Assembly (NCBI GenBank): GCA_951406725.2
Contig: OX597838.1
Location: 7,502,001 to 7,566,000, forward strand
Length of the DNA stretch: 64,000 nucleotides
Reading direction: 5' to 3'
From: Octopus vulgaris
Lineage: Eukaryota
Shown: positions 3,289 through 55,425 of the stretch, piece after piece
Position numbering within the stretch: the first letter of the stretch is position 1
Layout: each line of letters begins with the position of its first letter
Made by a program: the position numbers and the translations under genes
The notes under the pieces: model-generated
What the model was told of the DNA's origin: nothing
What the model saw: only the letters and a program-made list of their open reading frames with translations
Databases searched by the model: none

Positions 3289-3510
3289 GTATGTATATGC
3301 ATGTGTGTGTATATGTTTGTGTGTCTGTGTTTGTACCCCCAACATCATTTGACAGCCGATGCTAGAGTGTTTACGAACACGTAACATAGCGACTCGGCAA
3401 AAGCGATCCGATAGAATAAGTACTAGGCTTAAAATGAACTTAATTCTGGGGCGATTTGCTCGACTAAAAGCCGTTGCTCCAGCATGACCGCAGTCAAATA
3501 ACAGAATAAA
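3111..3510 (+). mobile_element. SINE family A (diverged)
   Basis: Collinear with 19880-20260. Confidence 0.8.
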
Positions 3511-5489: not shown

Positions 5490-5660
5490 CTACTTGTTTC
5501 AGTCATCGGACTGAGGTCATGCTGGGGCACCGCCTTGAATGGTTTAGTCGAAGTAATTGACAGTAGTATTTCATTTTTAAACGTGGTAATATTATGTCGG
5601 TCTCTTTTGCCGAAGCGCCAGCTTACGGGGACGCAAACAAACCAATACCGGCCGTCAAGA
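5490..5660 (-). mobile_element. SINE family A, 3' half
   Basis: TTTCAGTCATCGGACTGAGGTCATGCTGGGGCACCGCC...TTACGGGGACG. Confidence 0.75.
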
Positions 5661-7277: not shown

Positions 7278-7371
7278 TGTCTATATGGTTATACACGCAG
7301 GCATAATCGCACTCACCCACTCACACACAAACACACACGCTACACATAGGAACAAACGCACACATACACGG

Positions 7372-7446
<75 letters not shown>

Positions 7447-7695
7447 ATATGGGTGGCTTTATATTAATTTAACAATCTAACGAGAAATTTTAGACGCCAC
7501 TAAAGTAGCAGAGGGTACGAAGTGGTAACTGCATTGCTAGAAATAAGAGTCAAGCTGACACATTGGCCACAAGAACACTATCTGACAAATCACCGGTAAT
7601 TTGTCTATATGGTTATACACGCAGGCATAATCGCACTCACCCACTCACACACAGACACACACGCTAGACATAGGAACAAAGGCACACGTACACGG

Positions 7696-7766
<71 letters not shown>

Positions 7767-7922
7767 ATATGGGTGGCTTGGTATTAATTTAACAATCTAA
7801 CGACAAATTTTAGACGCCACTAAAGTAGCAGAGGGGACGAAGTGGTAACTGCATTGCTAGAAATAAGAGTCAGGCTGACACATTGGCCACAAGAACACTA
7901 TCTGACAAATCACCGGTAATTT
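7278..7922. repeat. Direct tandem duplication, 2 x ~322 bp
   Basis: Units 7278-7601 and 7602-7922 both run TGTCTATATGGTTATACACGCAGG...CAAATCACCGGTAATT. Confidence 0.92.
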
Positions 7923-10459: not shown

Positions 10460-10661
10460 ATATATATACACAGACCCACATATCTAGTAAGTATGTATCT
10501 CTGTGTCAATACTGGCGGTTCCTGACGTGGATATACGTTCTAGGCAGATGTATATATGTATATATATACACTCATATATATGATTGATTGATTCTAGTTT
10601 CAGCTTATGAGCTGTGGCCATGCTGGGGCACCGCCATTTGGTGTTGCTACTTGGTTTCACT

Positions 10662-13661
10662 TCATGGAGGTTTTCTAGCAACTGCTATTTGGTGCATGAG
10701 AGAGTTCGATGCAGCTGCCCTCATCTGCCCCTCCTGCCGTGAAGTTGGTTCATCTGGGACACCTGACAGGAAGAGATCCAGCTTCATTTTAAAGACATCT
10801 GTATCCACCCCATGCAGGTCTCTCAGGTTCTTCGGGAGGATATTGAAGAGCTGTGGGCCTCGGAAGCCCAGGCTATCACAGTATCTTGTCCTACATCTTG
10901 ATGGCAGGTTTGGAGTCCTAGGCACCACGCAGTGGCGCCCAGTTCTGGCATTTGTGTAACTCTCGATGCCAAAGTTCAGGACACTTCCCTCCAGGATCTT
11001 CCAGATGTATATTATGGCATATCTTTCCCGCCTACGCTCCAGGGAATATAATTTTAATCTCTTGAGTCTTTCCCAGTAGCTTACATTCTGCATAGAGGCT
11101 ATCTTCTTTGTGTAGCTTCGTTGGATCGCCTCAAGTTCTGTGATCAACTTGACACTGGATGGTGACCATAGCTGAGAGCAATAGTCAAAGTGGCTTAGGA
11201 CAAGTGTCTTCCAGAGGACCATCATGGTTTCTTGTTCTCTTGTTCTAAAGGTTCTAAGAATCCATCCAGCCAGCCGTCTACATTTCATTGTCAGTTTAGC
11301 AACATGTACATGAAAGGTCGCGTCATCACTCATATGAATACCCAGGTCACGCACTGATTGTGCCTCTGGGATTGCAATCCCTCCGGGTCCAGTGTATTCA
11401 TTGGGTATTGCATTCAGTTTTGCATGCTGATAGTATAAAGCTTGAAACTTTCCAGCATTGAACTGCATGCTATTCTTTTCAGCCCACTTGTATATTTCGT
11501 CCAGCTCACATTGCAGGTGTTTAGTGTCCTCAGGGTTCTGTATTGCCTGTGAAACTTTTGTATCATCTGCATAACTTGTGATCGTGGCTCTCTGCGTGGC
11601 TGAGGGCATGTCTGAGAGGGCCATTATGAACAGTAGTGGTCCCAGAACAGTGCCCTGCGGAACACCGCTCACTATTTGTGTGTTAATGGAGGTGGCCCCA
11701 TTGGCTACTACCACCTGACTTCTATCCTTCAGAAAGTCATGAAGCCATTCTCCCAGTTTTCCAACTATGTTGAGATCACGCAGTTTGTGACATATCATTC
11801 CATGATCGACTTTATCAAAGGCCTTTGCAAAGTCGAGATATATCACTTCCACATTTGAGTGGTTGAGCAGCCGTTTCAGCACCCAGTCATAGTGTTGTAG
11901 GAGCTGAGTTAAACAGCTTCTCCCTGGTCGGAAACCATGTTGGGTGTCGGGCAGCCAGTCATTCTCTTCAAGGAAGGTGATCAGCTTCCTTCTGACTATT
12001 CGTTCCATGACCTTGCTGATGTGTGAGGTCAGAGAGATAGGTCTATAGTTCTTGGCTTCCGCTCTGCTACCTCCTTTATGAATGGGGCATATTTTACCTT
12101 CCTTCAGTTTTCCTGGAAGTTTGCCAGCTGCAAGGAAGCTCTGAAAGAGGAACTGCAGTGGTCTTGCTAGGACTCTCTTACATGCTTTTAGGAGGATTGC
12201 CGGGAATCCATCGGGGCCAGTAGCTGAGTCTGTTTTCATTTCATCTATAGCCTTGGTTACATCGTCTTCATTTATATCGATGTAATCTATCGTCGCCGCC
12301 TCTGATTTTATATCTGCAGTGGTAAAAAAGTCAGTTGGATTGGTGATTTGGAGATGCCCAAGGGGTGGAGTGAAAACACTCTTGAATTGCTCATTCAGTA
12401 TTTCACTTACCCTCATTGGTTTTCCTGTAAGTGTGCCATCCTTTTCGAGGAGTGGCCCTATTCTACAGTGCACTGTAGCTGTTTCTTTGGCATACCTGTA
12501 GAAAGCTCTGGGGTTAGATTTTATGTTTTCTATAGCCCAGGCTTCTTTGTCTGCTCTTTCTTTTTCATGGGAGAGTTGCAGACATTTTTCGATTTCCAAC
12601 AGTTTTATTTTTAGGCGGGACTTTTCACTGCTTTCAATCTGTTTGTTTAGGCGATTTGAAAATTTCGTACGCCGTCTCATTAAAATTTTCCTCTCTCTGG
12701 GGATTTTGTTCTTGTGTACAGTGGCCTTTCTCTCTGGGACACATTTGTAGCATATGGCTTGCATTACAGACATGAATTGTTGAAGTTTCACGTCGATGTC
12801 TGGCGAGGAGAGACATTCAGGCCAGTTTTGTTTGAGGATCTCTTTCTCAATTTGTTTCCAGTTTGCCTTATGGTAGTTCAAGCTGGAAAGATTTTGAGGG
12901 TTTCTTGTAGGCTGCATGTCCGTGCTCTCTTTTGGCCCGTACATGGTCAGCTCTACCATGTTGTGATCCGAGAGTAGTGTCGGTGTCACTTTCACATTAT
13001 GGATGAGATCCATGTCATTTGTGAAGCAGAGATCCAGTGTGTTACCTGCCCTGGTTGGTTGGAGTATTACCTGCTCCATGTACAGGGTGTTGATGAGGTT
13101 CAGGAGAGACCTCGCCTGTCCTCGTTCACATCTTGTCATTCCTGGGAGAGAAAGGCCCTCGGGCCATCTGACATTGGGCAGATTGAAGTCTCCCATAAGA
13201 AGCACACCTATGTGTTGTTCTAATGTGGTTAGAATTTCTTCTATTTTTATAAGGCAGTCTTCGAACTTGCCCACATGGCTTGGGGCATCTGGAGGGCGAT
13301 ATGTAGCACACACAACTACATCAAGTTGCCTAATATGTACAATTAGTGTGTCACACACCGAGTTTGAGTATGACAGGAGGACCTGGGGTGTGAGGTCCTC
13401 ACGGATGTACATAGCAACACCTCCATGACTCCTTTCTTTCCTGTCGGTCCGTAGTACAGCATACTGTGGTATGTGTAACTCCGCATCTGCTATGTCCGGT
13501 TTCAGGTGCGTTTCTGTAAGTGCTATGCATAAGGCTTGATTGCATGCAACAAAGTCTCTCAGGAACGGGATCTTTGTCCTGTTACTGAGTGTTTGCAGTC
13601 CTCTGATGTTCAGTAGGAGTATCGAGGTGAGGTGTACGTTGTTGTTGCCGGCGGTGTCCAT
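10662..13661 (-). CDS. LINE ORF2: apurinic-like endonuclease plus reverse transcriptase (~999 aa from the first ATG at 13661; the track start at 13769 is GTG)
   Basis: APE motifs LLNIRGL, LTETHL, GGVAMY, YRPP, MGDFNLP, TLDLCF, SDH; RT motifs GPDG, NYRPISLTS, QHGFRPGRSC, YLDFAKAFDKVDH, SGVPQGTVLGPLLF, YADDTK; CR1-like C-terminus YWERLKRLKLYSLERRR; no stops. Confidence 0.95.
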   Translation of the reverse strand: MDTAGNNNVHLTSILLLNIRGLQTLSNRTKIPFLRDFVACNQALCIALTETHLKPDIADAELHIPQYAVLRTDRKERSHGGVAMYIREDLTPQVLLSYSNSVCDTLIVHIRQLDVVVCATYRPPDAPSHVGKFEDCLIKIEEILTTLEQHIGVLLMGDFNLPNVRWPEGLSLPGMTRCERGQARSLLNLINTLYMEQVILQPTRAGNTLDLCFTNDMDLIHNVKVTPTLLSDHNMVELTMYGPKESTDMQPTRNPQNLSSLNYHKANWKQIEKEILKQNWPECLSSPDIDVKLQQFMSVMQAICYKCVPERKATVHKNKIPRERKILMRRRTKFSNRLNKQIESSEKSRLKIKLLEIEKCLQLSHEKERADKEAWAIENIKSNPRAFYRYAKETATVHCRIGPLLEKDGTLTGKPMRVSEILNEQFKSVFTPPLGHLQITNPTDFFTTADIKSEAATIDYIDINEDDVTKAIDEMKTDSATGPDGFPAILLKACKRVLARPLQFLFQSFLAAGKLPGKLKEGKICPIHKGGSRAEAKNYRPISLTSHISKVMERIVRRKLITFLEENDWLPDTQHGFRPGRSCLTQLLQHYDWVLKRLLNHSNVEVIYLDFAKAFDKVDHGMICHKLRDLNIVGKLGEWLHDFLKDRSQVVVANGATSINTQIVSGVPQGTVLGPLLFIMALSDMPSATQRATITSYADDTKVSQAIQNPEDTKHLQCELDEIYKWAEKNSMQFNAGKFQALYYQHAKLNAIPNEYTGPGGIAIPEAQSVRDLGIHMSDDATFHVHVAKLTMKCRRLAGWILRTFRTREQETMMVLWKTLVLSHFDYCSQLWSPSSVKLITELEAIQRSYTKKIASMQNVSYWERLKRLKLYSLERRRERYAIIYIWKILEGSVLNFGIESYTNARTGRHCVVPRTPNLPSRCRTRYCDSLGFRGPQLFNILPKNLRDLHGVDTDVFKMKLDLFLSGVPDEPTSRQEGQMRAAASNSLMHQIAVARKPP

Positions 13662-14524
13662 CCTGTGTCTGTTTGCTGTGGTGGTCTGGTATATAGTGGG
13701 TAGTCCCACCTGCGGGCTTGGGTTTGATGAAGCCAGGTCAGCTGCTGTACGATCTTTTGTGCCATGCACAAAAAAGATTGTTGCTCAGCAGCTGCTCTTT
13801 CGACAACATCATGTTGGCTGTTTGTGGCGCGCACAACATCTGCGTACCTCCGCTTTGGGGCAGGTGGTGCGTAGTCCATCCCTTTTCTTTGTGTTGATGG
13901 TTTGTCCATCTGCCTCGTGTCTCTGTGGCAGGGTCCCCGATGTGCAAAGCGGCAGCCTGCACCTTCCTTTCCGTGCCAGCAGGAACCTCTCAGGTAGAAC
14001 ATACACACCCGTGTGCGCTGTTTGGTTCCATCCTTTGCGGTTCCACTTCTACTCCTGGTTGTGTCTCTCTTTGGTCCTGCTTGAGCTTTTTCTTTTCCTT
14101 TAGCTCTTCCAGTCCTTCTTTTAGTTCTTCTTCCTCCCTCTACCTCTTCACCGGGTTCTCCGTCTCTATGGCCCTTGCTGCCGGTTGGAGAACTTGCACC
14201 TGGGTTCACTTCCCGGGCAGGTTTCTCATTCAAAACCTCCTCCTGGGCGTCCACCAGGTGGGGGTGACTTCTTTCATCGTCTCCATTCTTGCCATCTTTG
14301 CTCCGCTCGTTCTCAAAGATGGCATCAAGTGCGCCAATGTGCGACCGTACAAGCGCATATGAGCGCACGAATTCCTGTCTCTTTCGCTCCATCTGAGCCG
14401 CTGTCCTCTTGTAGCCTCTGCTCTTCAGCGCAGCCGCAATCACCTCGCTAGGGCTATCTCCGCCGGCGCACTCCCATGCTCGTACAAATAAATCCAGCTC
14501 GTCACGTCTCCATGCTCTGGACAT
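13610..14524 (-). CDS. LINE ORF1 (304 aa): N-terminal Myb/SANT trihelix-like domain, basic linker, CCCH zinc finger
   Basis: W..DE..LF..AW...IAAALKSRGYKRTAAQMERKRQEF..SY fits the Myb/SANT-like (Myb_DNA-bind_4 type) pattern; CMFYLRGSCWHGKEGAGCRFAH is C-x7-C-x8-C-x3-H; lies directly upstream of ORF2 and overlaps it. Confidence 0.8.
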   Translation of the reverse strand: MSRAWRRDELDLFVRAWECAGGDSPSEVIAAALKSRGYKRTAAQMERKRQEFVRSYALVRSHIGALDAIFENERSKDGKNGDDERSHPHLVDAQEEVLNEKPAREVNPGASSPTGSKGHRDGEPGEEVEGGRRTKRRTGRAKGKEKAQAGPKRDTTRSRSGTAKDGTKQRTRVCMFYLRGSCWHGKEGAGCRFAHRGPCHRDTRQMDKPSTQRKGMDYAPPAPKRRYADVVRATNSQHDVVERAAAEQQSFLCMAQKIVQQLTWLHQTQARRWDYPLYTRPPQQTDTGWTPPATTTYTSPRYSY

Positions 14525-14579
14525 GCTGGATAATCCGTCTATCCGTTTATCTATCTAATTATGTTCGAGAGAAGACAGG

Positions 14580-15605
14580 AAGATATTAAGGCTAATTAGA
14601 AGATAGAGTACTTGAAAAAGAAATATTAACAATATTAAAGTTTGTGTAAAGACGTTATTTGGGTAAAAACGTTATTTAATCTTAAGGCTAATTAGGAGAT
14701 AGAGTATCTGAAAATATATTAGCAATATTAATATTATATTAGAGTGTGGGTAAAAAAAACGTTATTTAATCTTAAGGCTAATTTGGAGATAGAGTATCTG
14801 AAAATATATTAGCAGTATTAATATTATATTAGAGTGTGGGTAATATTAAACGTTATTTAATTTAATCTTAAGGCTAATTAGAAGACAGAGTATCTGAAAA
14901 ATTATATATACAATATTAAGCAATATTAACCGTTATTTAATTTAATCTTAAGGCTAATTAGACGTTATTAATATTAAACGTTATTTAATTTAATCTTAAG
15001 GCTAATTAGAAGATAGAGTATCTGAAAATATATTAGCAATATTAATATTATATTAGAGTGTGGATAAAAACGTTATTTAATCTTAAGGCTAATCAGGAGA
15101 TAGAGTATGTGAAAATATATTAGCAATGTTAATATTATATTAGAGTGTGGGTAATATTAAACGTTATTTAATTTAATCTTAAGGCTAATTAGAAGATAGA
15201 GTATCTGAAGAAGTATTAACAATATTAAAACAATATTAAACGTTATTTAATTTAATCTTAAGGCTAATTAACAGTAATTATTAACAATATTAAACAATAT
15301 TAAACGTTATTTAATTTAATCCTAAGGCTAATTAACAATAATTATTAACAATATTAAACGTTATTTAATTTAATCCTAAGGCTAATTAGACGTTATTAAT
15401 ATTAAACGTTATTTAATTTAATCTTAAGGCTAATTAGAAGATAGAGTATCTGAAAAATTATTAACAATATTAAAACAATATTAAACGTTATTTAATTTAA
15501 TCTTAAGGCTAATTAACAATAATTATTAACAATATTAAACTATATTAAACGTTATTTAATTTAATCCTAAGGCTAATTTGACGGTATCAATATTAAACGT
15601 TATTT

Positions 15606-15610
<5 letters not shown>
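14580..15610 (-). repeat. Modular tandem-repeat array at the LINE 5' end (putative 5' UTR or promoter monomers)
   Basis: 14 copies of AAGGCTAAT inside the block AAACGTTATTTAAT(TTAAT)CTTAAGGCTAATT, spaced about 48-96 bp, separated by recurring sub-modules (GAAGATAGAGTATCTGAAAA, CAATATTAA, TATTAGAGTGTGGGTA). Confidence 0.9.
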
Positions 15611-15641
<31 letters not shown>

Positions 15642-15799
15642 TATATAGATATATATGTATATATTTATATCTATATATTTATATATATATGCATATATAT
15701 ATAAATATATATGTATGTATGTATATATATATACATATGTATAAATATATATATTTATATGTAGATATATATCTATATACACACACACATATATATATA

Positions 15800-15872
<73 letters not shown>

Positions 15873-18869: not shown

Positions 18870-19630
18870 GCTTACTGGGGTCGTTGTAATCGACTGTCCC
18901 CTGCCCTCAAATTTCAGGCCTAGTGCTTACAGTAGAAATGATTATTATGCTTAGTTCTAAGGCGGCGAGCTGGCAGAAACGTTAGCAAGCCGGGCGAAAT
19001 GCTTAGTGGTTTTTTCGTGTGCAGCTACGTTCTGAGTTCAAATTCCGCCGAGGTCGACTTTGCTTTTCATCCTTTCGGGGTCGATTAAATAAGTACCAGT
19101 TACGCCATGGGGTCGATGTAATCGACCAGCCCCATTCCCCAAGGCATTGGGTCTAGAGTAGAAATTAATGTTATTGTTAGTTCTAGGTGGTGAGCTGGCA
19201 GAATCGTTAGCACGCCGGGTGAAATGCTTAGCGCTATTTCGTCTGCCGCTACATTTTGAGTCCAAATTCTGCCGAGGTTGACTTTGCCTTTCATCGTTTC
19301 TAGGTCGATAAATTAATTACCATTAGAGTTATGGGGGTCAATGTCATCGACTTGCACGCTTCCCACAAAATTTCAGGACTTGTGCCTATAGTATAAAGGA
19401 TTATTATTGCTTCCAGAACGAGCGAGTTTAGAAGAACTCTTCGTGCGTTGGAAAAAGCTTAGCGTTATTCGGACATTTCACGTTCTGAGTTCAACTACTC
19501 CCGAGTTCCACTTTCTTTTTAGTCATTTCTGAATGGTTAAAAGAAGTCGCATTCAAGAACTATGATCGTTGTAATCAGGTAAAGACGCCTCTAAAACCGG
19601 AGGCCCTGCACTGAAAATTTGAAATCGCTA
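18870..19630 (+). mobile_element. Tandem cluster of 3-4 SINE family B copies (tail 2, ending in ATT repeats)
   Basis: Heads GGCGGCGAGCTGGCAGAA at ~18961 and ~19187; repeated GCCTTTCATC body; tails CAGGCCT.GTGC...TAGAAA.GATTATTAT. Confidence 0.8.
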
Positions 19631-19879
19631 TTCTTCTCACGCTATGAAATAAATTTAGCCACTTCACTCATTTGAGGAAGTTGAAAACGGACCATACTGT
19701 ACATTTGAAAACTATGAAAATGCGACGATGCGCATTCTGACCAGAAATCTGTAACATCTTATTGTCTGGGCGATACAACGAAATATATATATATACACAC
19801 ACGTGTGTATATATGAAGTTATACACACGTGTGTATAACGAAATATATATACACACACACGTTAATCTTTCTCTTTACT

Positions 19880-20260
19880 CTCTTTACTTGTTTCAGTCAC
19901 TTGACTGCGGCCATGCTGGAGCATCGCTTTTTAGTCGAGCAAATCGACCCCAGGACTTATTCTTTGTAAGCCCAGTACTTATTCAACCGGTCACTTGTGC
20001 CGCACCGCTAAGTTACGGGGACGTAAACATACCAGCATCGGTTGTCAAGCGATGTTGGGAGGACAAACGCAGACACACAAACATACACATACATATATAC
20101 GACGGGCTTCTTTCAGTTTCCGTCTATCAAATCCACTCACAAGGCTTTGGTCGGCCCGAGGCTATAGTAGAAGACACTTGCCCAAGGTGCCACGCAGTAG
20201 GACTGAACCCGGGACGATGTGGTTGGTAAGCAAGCTACCTACCACACAGCCACTCCTACA
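19880..20260 (-). mobile_element. SINE family A, full copy (tRNA-like head, CORE-like segment, internal microsatellite, LINE-like tail)
   Basis: Head AGGAGTGGCTGTGTGG...GGTTCAGTCC (A/B boxes), GGCACCTTGGGCAAGTGT, tail GCTCCAGCATGGCCGCAGTCAAGTGACTGAAAC; many copies in window. Confidence 0.85.
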
Positions 20261-23448: not shown

Positions 23449-23868
23449 TGATTGATTGATTGATTCTAGTTTCAGCTCATGAGCTGTGGCCATGCTGGGG
23501 CACCGCCATTTGGTGTTGCTACTTGGTTTTACTTCACGAAAGCTTTTTAGCAACTGCCATTTGGTGCATGAGAGAGTTCGATGCAGCTGCCCTCATCTGC
23601 ACCTCCTGCCGTGAAGTTGGTTCATCTGGGACACCTGACAGGAAGAGATCCAGTTTCATTTTAAAGACATCTGCATCCACCTCATGCAGGTCTCTCAGGT
23701 TCTTCGGGAGGATATTGAAGAGTTGTGGGCCTCGGAAGCCCAGGCTATCACAGTATCTTGTCCTACATCTTGATGGCAAATTTGGAGTCCTAGGCACCAC
23801 GCAGTGGCGCCCAGTTCTGGCATTTGTGTAACTCTCGATGCCAAAGTTTGGGACACGCCCCTCCAGAA
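23449..23868 (-). mobile_element. 5'-truncated copy of the 10581-15610 LINE (last ~420 bp)
   Basis: Near-identical to 10581-10995, same peptide VPRTPNLPSRCRTRYCDSLGFRGPQLFN, same (TGAT)n end on plus. Confidence 0.95.
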
Positions 23869-25885
23869 TATGGAACAGAAATATTGCTATAATTCATGGA
23901 ATATAATATGGAACAGAAATATTGCTATAATTCAAAAAGAGAAAAAAAAAACAGTTTTCGATGCAACATAAGGTACGCGTGTAATTTGAAAAGGAACAAG
24001 CCTATGGTTTCGTCTGGGAAAATCCTTTTATAGTGGTATTATATAAAAAGCACTATATGATTTAGAGTTAGGCGAAAAGAAATTGCTCCTGGAATGACAG
24101 TGAGAGACGCAGATATGTTTTTTGCCGATTTCGTGCGTCGTTGAAGTCGTATTTAATGGATTGTGATTTTAGTTTCGACAAATTTTCGGGGCCAATCTAA
24201 GTTCTATCCAGATTAATATTATTATTAGTAATATACCGTTGTGTTTAGGAGTATTATTAACGCGAGCAGTGTTCTTCTCTACAATGCATGCTATTAAAAG
24301 TCAATGGTAGATTATTGAGAAAAAAGAAATAAATGGATTTTATAAACATGAAAAGGGAGATGACTGTCTCGGGTATATTCGCATCCTGTATACAACATAA
24401 ATCGTGACATCATTGGCCAACGAGGGTTTTCTACGGGATGTATGACAGCCCTTCATTAAACGCATTTGTCATTTTTACTCACAGTATATCTGGCTTAGGA
24501 TGAAGGAGTAAACACAAGCGACTAAAGCATTTGAAGGAACGGTTGATTTCGTTCATCACTCCGCGTACCTTGCGCAGATTTGCTACATCCCATAAACCTC
24601 AAGATGTGAAAGAGAAAATTCGCAGCTTTGGGATTTTATCAGAAGCACTTTCAAGCCACTCAAAGTATCACCCAGTATAATTCATCACAACACAAGAGAA
24701 GTTTAGTTAACCCAAGATGCATAGATAAGAATACCAGTTTCATCAACGGTGGATGCAATAACTCCATATGTGAAGAGCTTAACAAGACGGCTTATAATGA
24801 GTCTCAGAATTAAAATCTTTACACATAGAATGCTGGAATAAACTATTCAGACAATAATTATCGTTTGATGAGAGAAAAAAGAGATATTTTTCCAGTATCT
24901 AAGTGTATTTCTAACGATGAGTCAAACTGGCCCCCAAGGCGACCCTAATGGGATCGTTCTTCCGTGGTACCATGACACGGCTAAGTTTCTTAGCCACCCT
25001 CGCAAACTAGTCGAAATTTTAATGTGAAATTCTTCATTCTCTGGGACCGATATATAAACCACGACCAAAATATTGTTGTCCACCCGTCTCCCACTTTTTT
25101 CTAAGCCCTTCTTTCAAAGGTAAAAAGGTACGTGACTCTGTAGTACTGGTACACATATTTAAAAAGTATCAAAAAACACACAGCAGGTTGATTAAACATG
25201 AATGATACAACTAAAAGAAAAATGATGAAGATAATGTAATGCAAGCCATTGCGATAGCACGTGGCCCAGTGGTTAGAGTGTTGCACTCACGATCGCCAGA
25301 CCGTTGGTTCGATTCCGCAACCGGCGTTCTTCAGCAAATTACTTCCTTTCCCGCTCTACTAGTGCTGCGTGAGAACCGGCTTACCAAAGAATACAACCTT
25401 TCGTTTATATGAGTTACGGTTTGTACTGTGACATCGTAAAAACCTCACCACCAACGACTACCCAGAAAAGGACCCATGGAGAGGAGGGCTAGCGCCTAAG
25501 CGGTTATAAAGATGTCTTTCTTCGGATGTAGTAGGAAATCACCAACGATTGTTTGATGTGATAACACGTTGTTACAACGCTTGTCCGCAATGTTATTATT
25601 GTTGTAGAAAGCTACTTGATATGATATTCAGCATATGAGTTAACGAGAAACACCTGTCACATACGAAGGTGTAGGTAGCTCTTGAAGCATCTGTTCGGTG
25701 ATGAAAATGTTCATCATTTAAATTCTACGCGGTAGCACGAACTCTTAGAAACGGAAAGCAGATCACCCTCAAATATATAAATTACTGTAATTTAGAAAGA
25801 GGACATTAAAATTGTGGATGCTCATGGCAGGAACGCTGTTGACTGGCCGATCCAATTCTTAAAGTAAATACGGGGGCAGAGAAGC

Positions 25886-36249: not shown

Positions 36250-36280
36250 TTCTTCTTTCAGCTCAGAGCTGCGGCCATGC
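36250..36280 (-). mobile_element. Tiny 3'-terminal remnant of the same LINE group (stem-loop only) within (TA)n
   Basis: Minus strand GCATGGCCGCAGCTCTGAGCTGAAA matches the LINE terminus GCATGGCCACAGCTCATAAGCTGAAA. Confidence 0.55.
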
Positions 36281-53534: not shown

Positions 53535-53742
53535 TTTTACTTATTTACTTGTTTCAGTCATATGACTGCAGCCATGCTGGAGCACCAACTTTAGTCGATC
53601 AAATCGACCCCGGGACTTATTCTTTGTAAGCCCAGTACTTATTCTATCGGTCACTTATTGCCGAACCGCTAAGTGACGGTGATGTAAACACACCAGCATC
53701 GGTTGTCAAGCGATGGTGGGGGGGACAAACACAGACACACAA

Positions 53743-55353: not shown

Positions 55354-55425
55354 TTCGTTCGACTAAAAATTCTGCAAGGCGGTGCCCCAGTATGGCCACA
55401 TTGCAATCACTGAAACAAATGAAAT
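55225..55425 (+). mobile_element. SINE family A, 3' half, preceded by an inverted copy of itself
   Basis: CGCTTGACA.CCGAT..TGGTGTGTTTACGTCCCCG...GGCGGTGCCCCAGTATGGCCAC. Confidence 0.8.

Follow-up and report, generated by a model that had tools for sequence, protein, structure and literature searches.

In a 64-kb stretch of the Octopus vulgaris genome (hereafter the window; contig OX597838.1, positions 7,502,001 to 7,566,000), we analysed a two-ORF CR1-like long interspersed nuclear element (LINE) that lies on the minus strand with both open reading frames (ORF1 and ORF2) intact, and whose ORF1 protein begins with a Myb/SANT-like domain. As judged from sequence comparison, this domain and the CCCH zinc finger of the same protein are real and under purifying selection. 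The domain sits in the slot where relatives of the element hold a PHD-like module, and would have taken over from that chromatin reader, most likely replacing it as the tether to the target. We put at about 0.45 the probability that the domain ties the retrotransposon particle to DNA or chromatin at the target, as opposed to regulating the element via the tandem array in its 5' untranslated region (UTR). The features of the window copy are as follows:

13610..14524, minus strand: ORF1, 304 aa, intact
10662..13661, minus strand: ORF2, ~999 aa, AP (apurinic/apyrimidinic) endonuclease and reverse transcriptase (RT), intact
14309..14524, minus strand: Myb/SANT (trihelix, PF13837-like) domain, ORF1 residues 1-72
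13940..14005, minus strand: single CCCH zinc finger, ORF1 residues 174-195 (PF00642 E=0.007, below cut-off)
13709..13804, minus strand: conserved C-terminal helix (FL-x-M motif) of ORF1, also found in PHD-type relatives
14525..14589, minus strand: leader from the last array unit to the ORF1 start
14590..15608, minus strand: 5' UTR tandem array, 14 units of 48-96 nt, 21% GC
15608..15871, no strand: 5' junction, a 31-nt A run (element strand), then a (TA)n microsatellite target site
10582..10661, minus strand: short 3' UTR, 80 nt, with two hairpins predicted at 10601-10636, ending in (AATC)n, then (TA)n

The start of ORF2 overlaps the end of ORF1 by 52 nt. A Pfam scan of ORF2 returned RVT_1 (7e-30) and Exo_endo_phos_2 (9e-12), and no ribonuclease H (RNase H) match at E<=1. 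Features of the CR1 group were thus seen: AP endonuclease and RT without RNase H, a short 3' end with hairpins (prediction z = -2.0) and a microsatellite, and common 5' truncation. The clade name CR1 is provisional and taken from sequence motifs. In an RT tree of 43 rows, built by a quick method from 30 in-group sequences (picked from 213), the octopus families A, B, C and D described below and outgroups, the element falls within a group of 100 support, apart from esterase-type and PHD/RRM-type elements, named Repbase references being absent from the tree.

The Myb/SANT-like domain of ORF1

Both ORF1 motifs that a first, sequence-only reading of this DNA had claimed are present in the window copy, namely W5-x3-E9-x3-F13-x3-W17 followed by IAAAL..RGYKRT..QM..K...F...Y56, and the finger C174-x7-C182-x8-C191-x3-H195. 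Its proposal that the former marks a Myb/SANT-like domain is borne out by profile searches and by a fold model of Myb type. PF13837 (Myb_DNA-bind_4) matched residues 3-61 of the window ORF1 with E=5.1e-4 and 20.8 bits, as against a cut-off of 27 bits; it was matched by 7 of 8 aligned family members (best 1.5e-8) and reached up to 42.9 bits in the homologous domain of family C. The domains of families A, B, C and D are alignable, and comparison of an A+B profile with five host PF13837 genes by hhalign gave 84% (E=8e-6). When the A+B domain was searched with HMMER against 1.84 billion representatives, 30 matches were obtained, 28 of which were by inspection of the Myb/SANT ORF1 type, five with a CCCH finger; among the 10 matches looked up, 4 were named, all of them Octopus.

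An AlphaFold model from the single sequence of residues 1-78 (predicted local distance difference test, pLDDT, 85; other four models 62-70) places helices at 7-19, 26-35 and 42-77, a predicted three-helix Myb/SANT fold with a long third helix. A full-length ORF1 model from 4 sequences had a pLDDT of 40 and was not used for fold search. In a wide fold search, the best matches to the domain model were ARR1 (Z 8.1), LUX (7.4), TEAD4 (7.1), DUX4 (7.0) and GT-1 (6.5), with fits of root-mean-square deviation 1.7 over 57 aligned residues for ARR1 and 5.3 over 70 for GT-1. The search with this predicted structure settles the superfamily, not the family, its best matches being Myb/GARP, and we judge the evidence from sequence for a Myb/SANT-like domain to be stronger than that from fold. 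Elsewhere, a PDB sequence search with ORF1 gave weak CCCH matches only (best E=0.09), word-index protein searches returned a single match each, and there was no ORF1 match in viral contigs; the ESM Atlas, with Myb/SANT families among its named matches (best 0.86), offers a lead only.

Families A and B are 44-45% identical over the whole of ORF1, a figure that rises to 54% in the Myb/SANT domain, 70% in the CCCH finger and 74% in the C-terminal helix and falls to 29% in the linker. Nonsynonymous divergence (dN) between them was 0.41 in the domain vs. 0.94 in the linker, synonymous sites being saturated in the domain. Surface residues of helix 3 are kept across 14 diverse ORF1s (R40 in 14, Q44 in 13, R47 in 11, K48 in 12, E51 in 10 and R54 in 10), and the 8 domains for which an isoelectric point was computed are all neutral to basic (8.0-9.7). 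The number of CCCH fingers varies, with one in A and B, four in C and 2-4 in relatives. In family D (L234-L252) a variable poly-glutamine tract directly follows the Myb/SANT domain, and a shorter tract is present in family C.

The 5' UTR array and families that lack it

The window element belongs to family A, for which a search of the octopus's own genome yielded 669 candidates. Forty of these were scored, and all were 99-100% identical over 401 nt; 20 copies, picked from the 30 best with long arrays favoured, were studied at length and had a median pairwise difference of 0.33% across 1.5 kb. Family A is therefore very young and recently amplified. Besides the window copy, both ORFs were full-length in 6 of the 20, and 19 carried an AATC tail of 4-7 units. 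One fixed tip, 470-478 nt upstream of the first array unit, forms the 5' start of 14 copies, the other six being truncated in the 5' UTR, and the window copy is itself 5'-truncated inside the array. The window holds, in addition, the 3' part of another copy, truncated at its 5' end, from this LINE family or a close one (23458-23986, minus strand; tail 93% identical). At several 5' junctions (L043, L037, L050, L243 and window 15608-15638) the element's first bases are repeated among TA repeats, or an A run is present, which suggests repeated template jumps or slippage at insertion.

GGCTAAT occurs 14 times in the array and 3 times in the remainder of the window. The array ends 66 nt before the ORF1 ATG, and its heterogeneous units are built around a constant ~30-nt core. 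The sequence-only reading had taken these units for the 5' monomers of the element, with GGCTAAT in every one. The 14 sites were confirmed, as was the array's membership of the element: it was found in all 30 of the best A copies, with 2 to 22 units within 1.57 kb and a common unit order, which rules out an unrelated flanking satellite. It is not, however, the element's 5' end, since it lies ~475 nt inside the fixed tip, and a role as 5' promoter monomers is ruled out on the same ground. GGCTAAT and GGGTAA(T/A) as quoted in that reading stand on the strand opposite to the element. The GT box bound by plant GT trihelix factors has the consensus GGTAA(A/T). GGGTAA(A/T), reported in several units and likened to this box, is indeed present, at 4 sites for 14 units, but this low count and its absence (0 sites) from the arrayed B, C and D 5' UTRs examined rule out the analogy. 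The array also contains 41 TAAT[TC] on one strand, a wealth of TAAT for which AT-richness alone may suffice.

The 14 full-length A copies have 15-21 array units. In an older A subfamily (ORF1 ~90% identical), 4 full-length copies have 7-8 unit cores, and because of this difference the array is likely to have grown over time. It probably represents a later, family-specific amplification of a 5' UTR segment that would act via host factors or be neutral. In some A copies (L011, L012, L013, L015, L022, L024 and L027) the unique segment is duplicated together with the first two units, over 370 nt, giving a higher-order repeat in the 5' UTR.

The Myb/SANT-like domain is present in at least eight octopus LINE families (A, A2, A3, B, C, D, E and G); among the seven other than A, one exceeds the Pfam cut-off for PF13837. 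An own-genome search with PF13837 gave 43 matches above the threshold; thirty of the loci were fetched, 25 of them (L186-L210) being starts of family C ORF1; A2, A3, E and G were found by searches with three distant ORF1s. The co-occurrence of domain and array thus holds for the 30 best A copies and fails in A2, A3, C, D, E and G, from which the GGCTAA array is absent. A2 is particularly close to A, being 63-65% identical in ORF1, 52/71 in the domain, 27/33 in helix 3 and 22/24 across residues 40-63, and GGCTAA or the unit core was found in none of its 7 copies, 4 of which reach the 5' tip. Neither of the two A3 copies (1 with the tip) has an array, nor do the E copies (1 with the tip, the upstream part of most others being perhaps incomplete) or the 5 of G, for which no tip was found and the upstream part may be incomplete. 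The 5' UTRs of A2, A3, E and G are pyrimidine-rich with other local duplications, and those of C and D are ~450 nt long without tandem arrays; GGCTAA was absent from 16/16 C and 10/10 D copies reaching the tip, out of 25 and 20 loci. Copies with few or no units in which the tip was not reached (L303/L344 and L308) were not counted as array-less.

Family B has a tip homologous to that of A but a different 42-nt unit, which among 30 loci was single in 15, absent in 2 and present in 2-22 copies in 13; 9 of the 15 single-unit copies extend to the ORF1 start. Arrayed and single-unit B copies are separate subfamilies, split with one change and 97 support in the Shimodaira-Hasegawa-like approximate likelihood ratio test (SH-aLRT). 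BLAST detected no similarity among the 5' UTRs of A/B, C and D.

Role of the domain and rival explanations

ORF2 found 80 loci in a metagenome scan, and the upstream frames of 39 were inspected. Among the frames listed, the closest relatives with a readable ORF1 start (L101, L102 and L110; ORF2 35-36% identical) have an ORF1 with a Cys-rich PHD-like N-terminus, then CCCH fingers and then the FL-x-M helix. The PHD-like call rests on PF00628 in L101 (E=9e-7) and on motif only in L102 and L110, and Myb families gave no match in the 5 metagenome relatives scanned. In the RT tree, A and B are distant from C and D, the latter joining PHD-type elements at 92; 24 relatives unlabelled as to ORF1 type lie between the two pairs. 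A single clade of A, B, C, D and three close relatives was rejected (approximately unbiased test, p-AU 0.0012), the constrained group having been set by ORF1 type, but after the first tree was known. This suggests, as far as sequence comparison goes, that the module was exchanged between two RT lineages or that an old domain was often lost. Families C and D (L214-L222, L217, L223) also have a common 3' tail unlike that of A/B, ending in CTAAGTT-type repeats.

The domain was probably acquired by capture, either from a trihelix gene of the host or from an accessory gene of PIF/Harbinger type. A 79-column domain tree separated the LINE domains and host genes L183 and L184 from three other host genes at 99/99; it is unresolved within groups and has long branches, and no donor is claimed. 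Five host genes or exons with PF13837 were observed (L181-L185), of which L183 and L184, 18 kb apart, stand nearest the LINE domains. Once in place, the domain would grip DNA or nucleosomes at the insertion step, with the CCCH finger binding the element's RNA and the C-terminal FL-x-M helix serving to oligomerise the protein. The helix-3 residues are conserved while the 5' UTRs are unlike, which argues for a ligand common to all families.

By a strict rule, (TA)n was found at the 3' end of 15/19 and the 5' end of 15/20 family A insertions, against 5.9% of the window. By a looser rule, scored on the 3' flank for A and for an RTE-type LINE control and on the 5' flank for B, C and D, it was found in 15/17 A, 22/30 B, 8/16 C, 6/10 D and 15/30 RTE insertions, with a background of 117/1280 positions (9%). 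RTE elements are not known to have an ORF1 of the Myb/SANT kind. The preference of A, the only family compared statistically with RTE, exceeded that of the control (p=0.012), while the rates of C and D are about equal to it. Targeting of (TA)n driven by the Myb domain was, as a candidate, weakened by this control.

Several of our observations weigh against a DNA or chromatin tether. The (TA)n bias is largely general to the genome and not peculiar to the Myb/SANT families, which leaves little support for sequence-specific targeting. Conserved helix 3 fits protein binding equally well as DNA binding. Foldseek, although 8 of its top 10 rows were Myb/SANT, gave a best E of 0.16 and none at E<=0.001, and in the wide fold search homeodomains and TEAD were almost tied with the best Z of 8.1. 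Of the three hallmark trihelix tryptophans, A and B keep only the first (W5), with non-aromatic residues in place of the other two; the third is also missing in 2/5 host PF13837 genes.

Alternatively, and by analogy with Harbinger, the domain might hold the ORF2 protein, further copies of ORF1 or some host factor, thereby bringing the particle into the nucleus, which we consider unlikely. The lost tryptophans, together with acidic E46 and E51 conserved on helix 3, would agree with such an escort, as would a basic patch at ORF1 residues 132-146, and the Harbinger Myb-like protein binds its transposase and is required for nuclear co-localisation (sections of PMC9710019). However, the domain precedes ORF2s whose endonucleases are only ~33% identical (A vs. 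C), and a specific ORF2 contact would therefore be expected to drift. It is quite unlikely that the domain, without a target role, adds a further unit for RNA binding or nucleic-acid chaperoning that compensates for lost CCCH fingers: A and B do have one finger vs. three in PHD-type relatives, and the domain is basic, but family C combines four fingers with the domain, which moreover occupies the PHD slot and not the finger slot.

Quite improbable, in our estimate, is the self-regulation that the sequence-only reading had proposed, in which ORF1 binds GGCTAA-type sites in its own 5' UTR array and thereby activates or represses its own transcription. The viable form of this idea has the domain as the older component and the arrays of A and part of B as multiplications of an already-bound site. 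It would be consistent with the array in all of the best A copies, with the separate origin of arrays in A and a B subfamily, with the word AGGCTAA, common to the A unit and one B unit variant on opposite strands (45/2000 shuffles), and with the Harbinger3_DR Myb-like protein, which binds a 9-bp motif in its own transposon (sections of PMC9710019). Yet six families have the domain and neither array nor motif, A2 among them with its near-identical helix 3, and the array does not hold up as the cognate site of ORF1. AGGCTAA was chosen post hoc and is missing from 15/15 single-unit and 3/13 arrayed B copies, and the longest word that the A and B units have in common overall is no longer than expected by chance (p ~0.55). 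Improbable to the same degree is a broader scheme whereby LINEs captured a trihelix domain and passed it between two distant lineages, giving a sequence-specific ORF1 whose site the youngest and most active family multiplied into a growing array, which would make a feedback loop encoded by the LINE alone.

Regulation by ORF1 via the CGTG core at the 5' tip, in competition with host TFIID, seems to us very unlikely. This core, at ~+20 to +28 of the tips in the variants AGACGTG, AGTCGTG and ACACGTG, is the one element that nearly all families share, and AAGACGT is the sole 7-mer common to the first 60 nt of A, C and D (1/3000 shuffles). Nevertheless, the flanks vary (AGTCGTG, ACACGTG) among A-type families with nearly the same helix, one family E copy has GGCGGTG in place of the motif, and CGTG of the same sequence and position is a known host downstream promoter element (DPE) of other non-LTR elements without such an ORF1 (sections of PMC4748587). 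AAGACGT as a universal ORF1 site was weakened by the variant tips; the core was not seen in three PHD-type contigs, which may not include their tips. Transcription would start at the 5' tip, from a DPE-type promoter read by the host.

Other repeats of the window and comparison with known systems

Sequence of the LINE 3' hairpins recurs, at 77-96% over 23-40 nt, in repeats resembling short interspersed nuclear elements (SINEs) at 19905-19935, 53548-53586, 36250-36280, 55378-55400, 5511-5534 and 3463-3493 of the window, and the repeat at 19870-19935 folds into the same two hairpins as the LINE 3' end. These SINE-like repeats were likely mobilised by families A/B, and since the hairpin is common to abundant short repeats, the family may be behind much of the retroposition in octopus. 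The window further contains three diverged ~230-nt units in tandem, probably SINE-derived (18876-19418), and a 320-nt tandem duplication, 96% identical (7278-7922).

LINE ORF1 proteins are viewed as RNA chaperones with exchangeable add-on modules. The Myb/SANT domain in the PHD position argues that the ORF1 slot is a chromatin or DNA tether. Since it occurs in two RT lineages, it is a candidate case of modules being swapped between ORF1s within a single genome. Family A, which is nearly clonal, and A2 make a natural pair for comparison: their domains are almost identical, but only A has the array.

Myb motifs are used or proposed for target DNA recognition in the R2 and TRAS non-LTR elements. 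These likewise hold a Myb-like domain inside a non-LTR retrotransposon; there, however, the motif is carried by the protein with the RT and accompanies strict site specificity, whereas the octopus LINE has it in ORF1 and shows a mere (TA)n bias. The 5' monomers of mouse L1 and other retrotransposon 5' UTR arrays are bound by host factors. Mouse L1 monomers resemble the octopus array in their variable number of tandem units upstream of ORF1, which changes between subfamilies, and differ from it in forming the 5' end with the start site, the octopus array lying well inside a fixed tip.

The Myb/SANT plus CCCH ORF1 type is apparently uncatalogued and occurs in two RT lineages which together are not monophyletic. 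The novelty that the sequence-only reading had made conditional on existing catalogues stands to this extent, no Myb/SANT ORF1 in a LINE having been found in a literature search that took in neither Repbase nor Dfam, nor papers behind a subscription or the PMC4120745 supplements, so that a curator's note may exist. Among the CR1/L2-lineage ORF1 types I-V of Metcalfe and Casane 2014 (PMC4120745), Table 1 gives PHD, RRM, CCHC, Tnp22, coiled coil, zf/lz and esterase. These elements are alike in having two ORFs, AP endonuclease and RT, and an N-terminal ORF1 module, often PHD, swapped between lineages; they are unlike in that the Myb/SANT plus CCCH ORF1 is absent from that table, and the PHD-like plus triple-CCCH ORF1 that we observed in CR1-like L101, L102, L105 and L110 is missing from it as well. 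Myb, SANT, MADF and CCCH have 0 occurrences in the main text of PMC4120745 and none in the main text and 2 of 3 supplements of PMC5203782; Myb, SANT and CCCH do not appear in PMC13343379, Myb and CCCH in PMC11203168, or Myb in PMC13282606 and PMC10294476. For O. vulgaris, PMC13282606 gives a count of 13 CR1 families with recent activity but does not describe their ORF1, and PMC2868851 has the TRF1 Myb domain as its subject.

The Zepp-like L1 of Coccomyxa (Ivancevic 2016, main text of PMC5203782) also has a helix-turn-helix domain (HTH_1) in a LINE ORF1, though it is of LysR type, in the L1 clade and in a green alga. The Myb-like accessory protein of PIF/Harbinger elements (SANT/trihelix/MADF) binds the DNA of its element and acts as escort to the catalytic protein (sections of PMC9710019). 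It belongs to a DNA transposon with a subterminal, family-specific site, whereas the octopus ORF1 belongs to a retrotransposon, has CCCH fingers and has no family-specific site that tracks the domain; the two are alike in carrying an N-terminal trihelix domain in a second protein of 300-400 aa.

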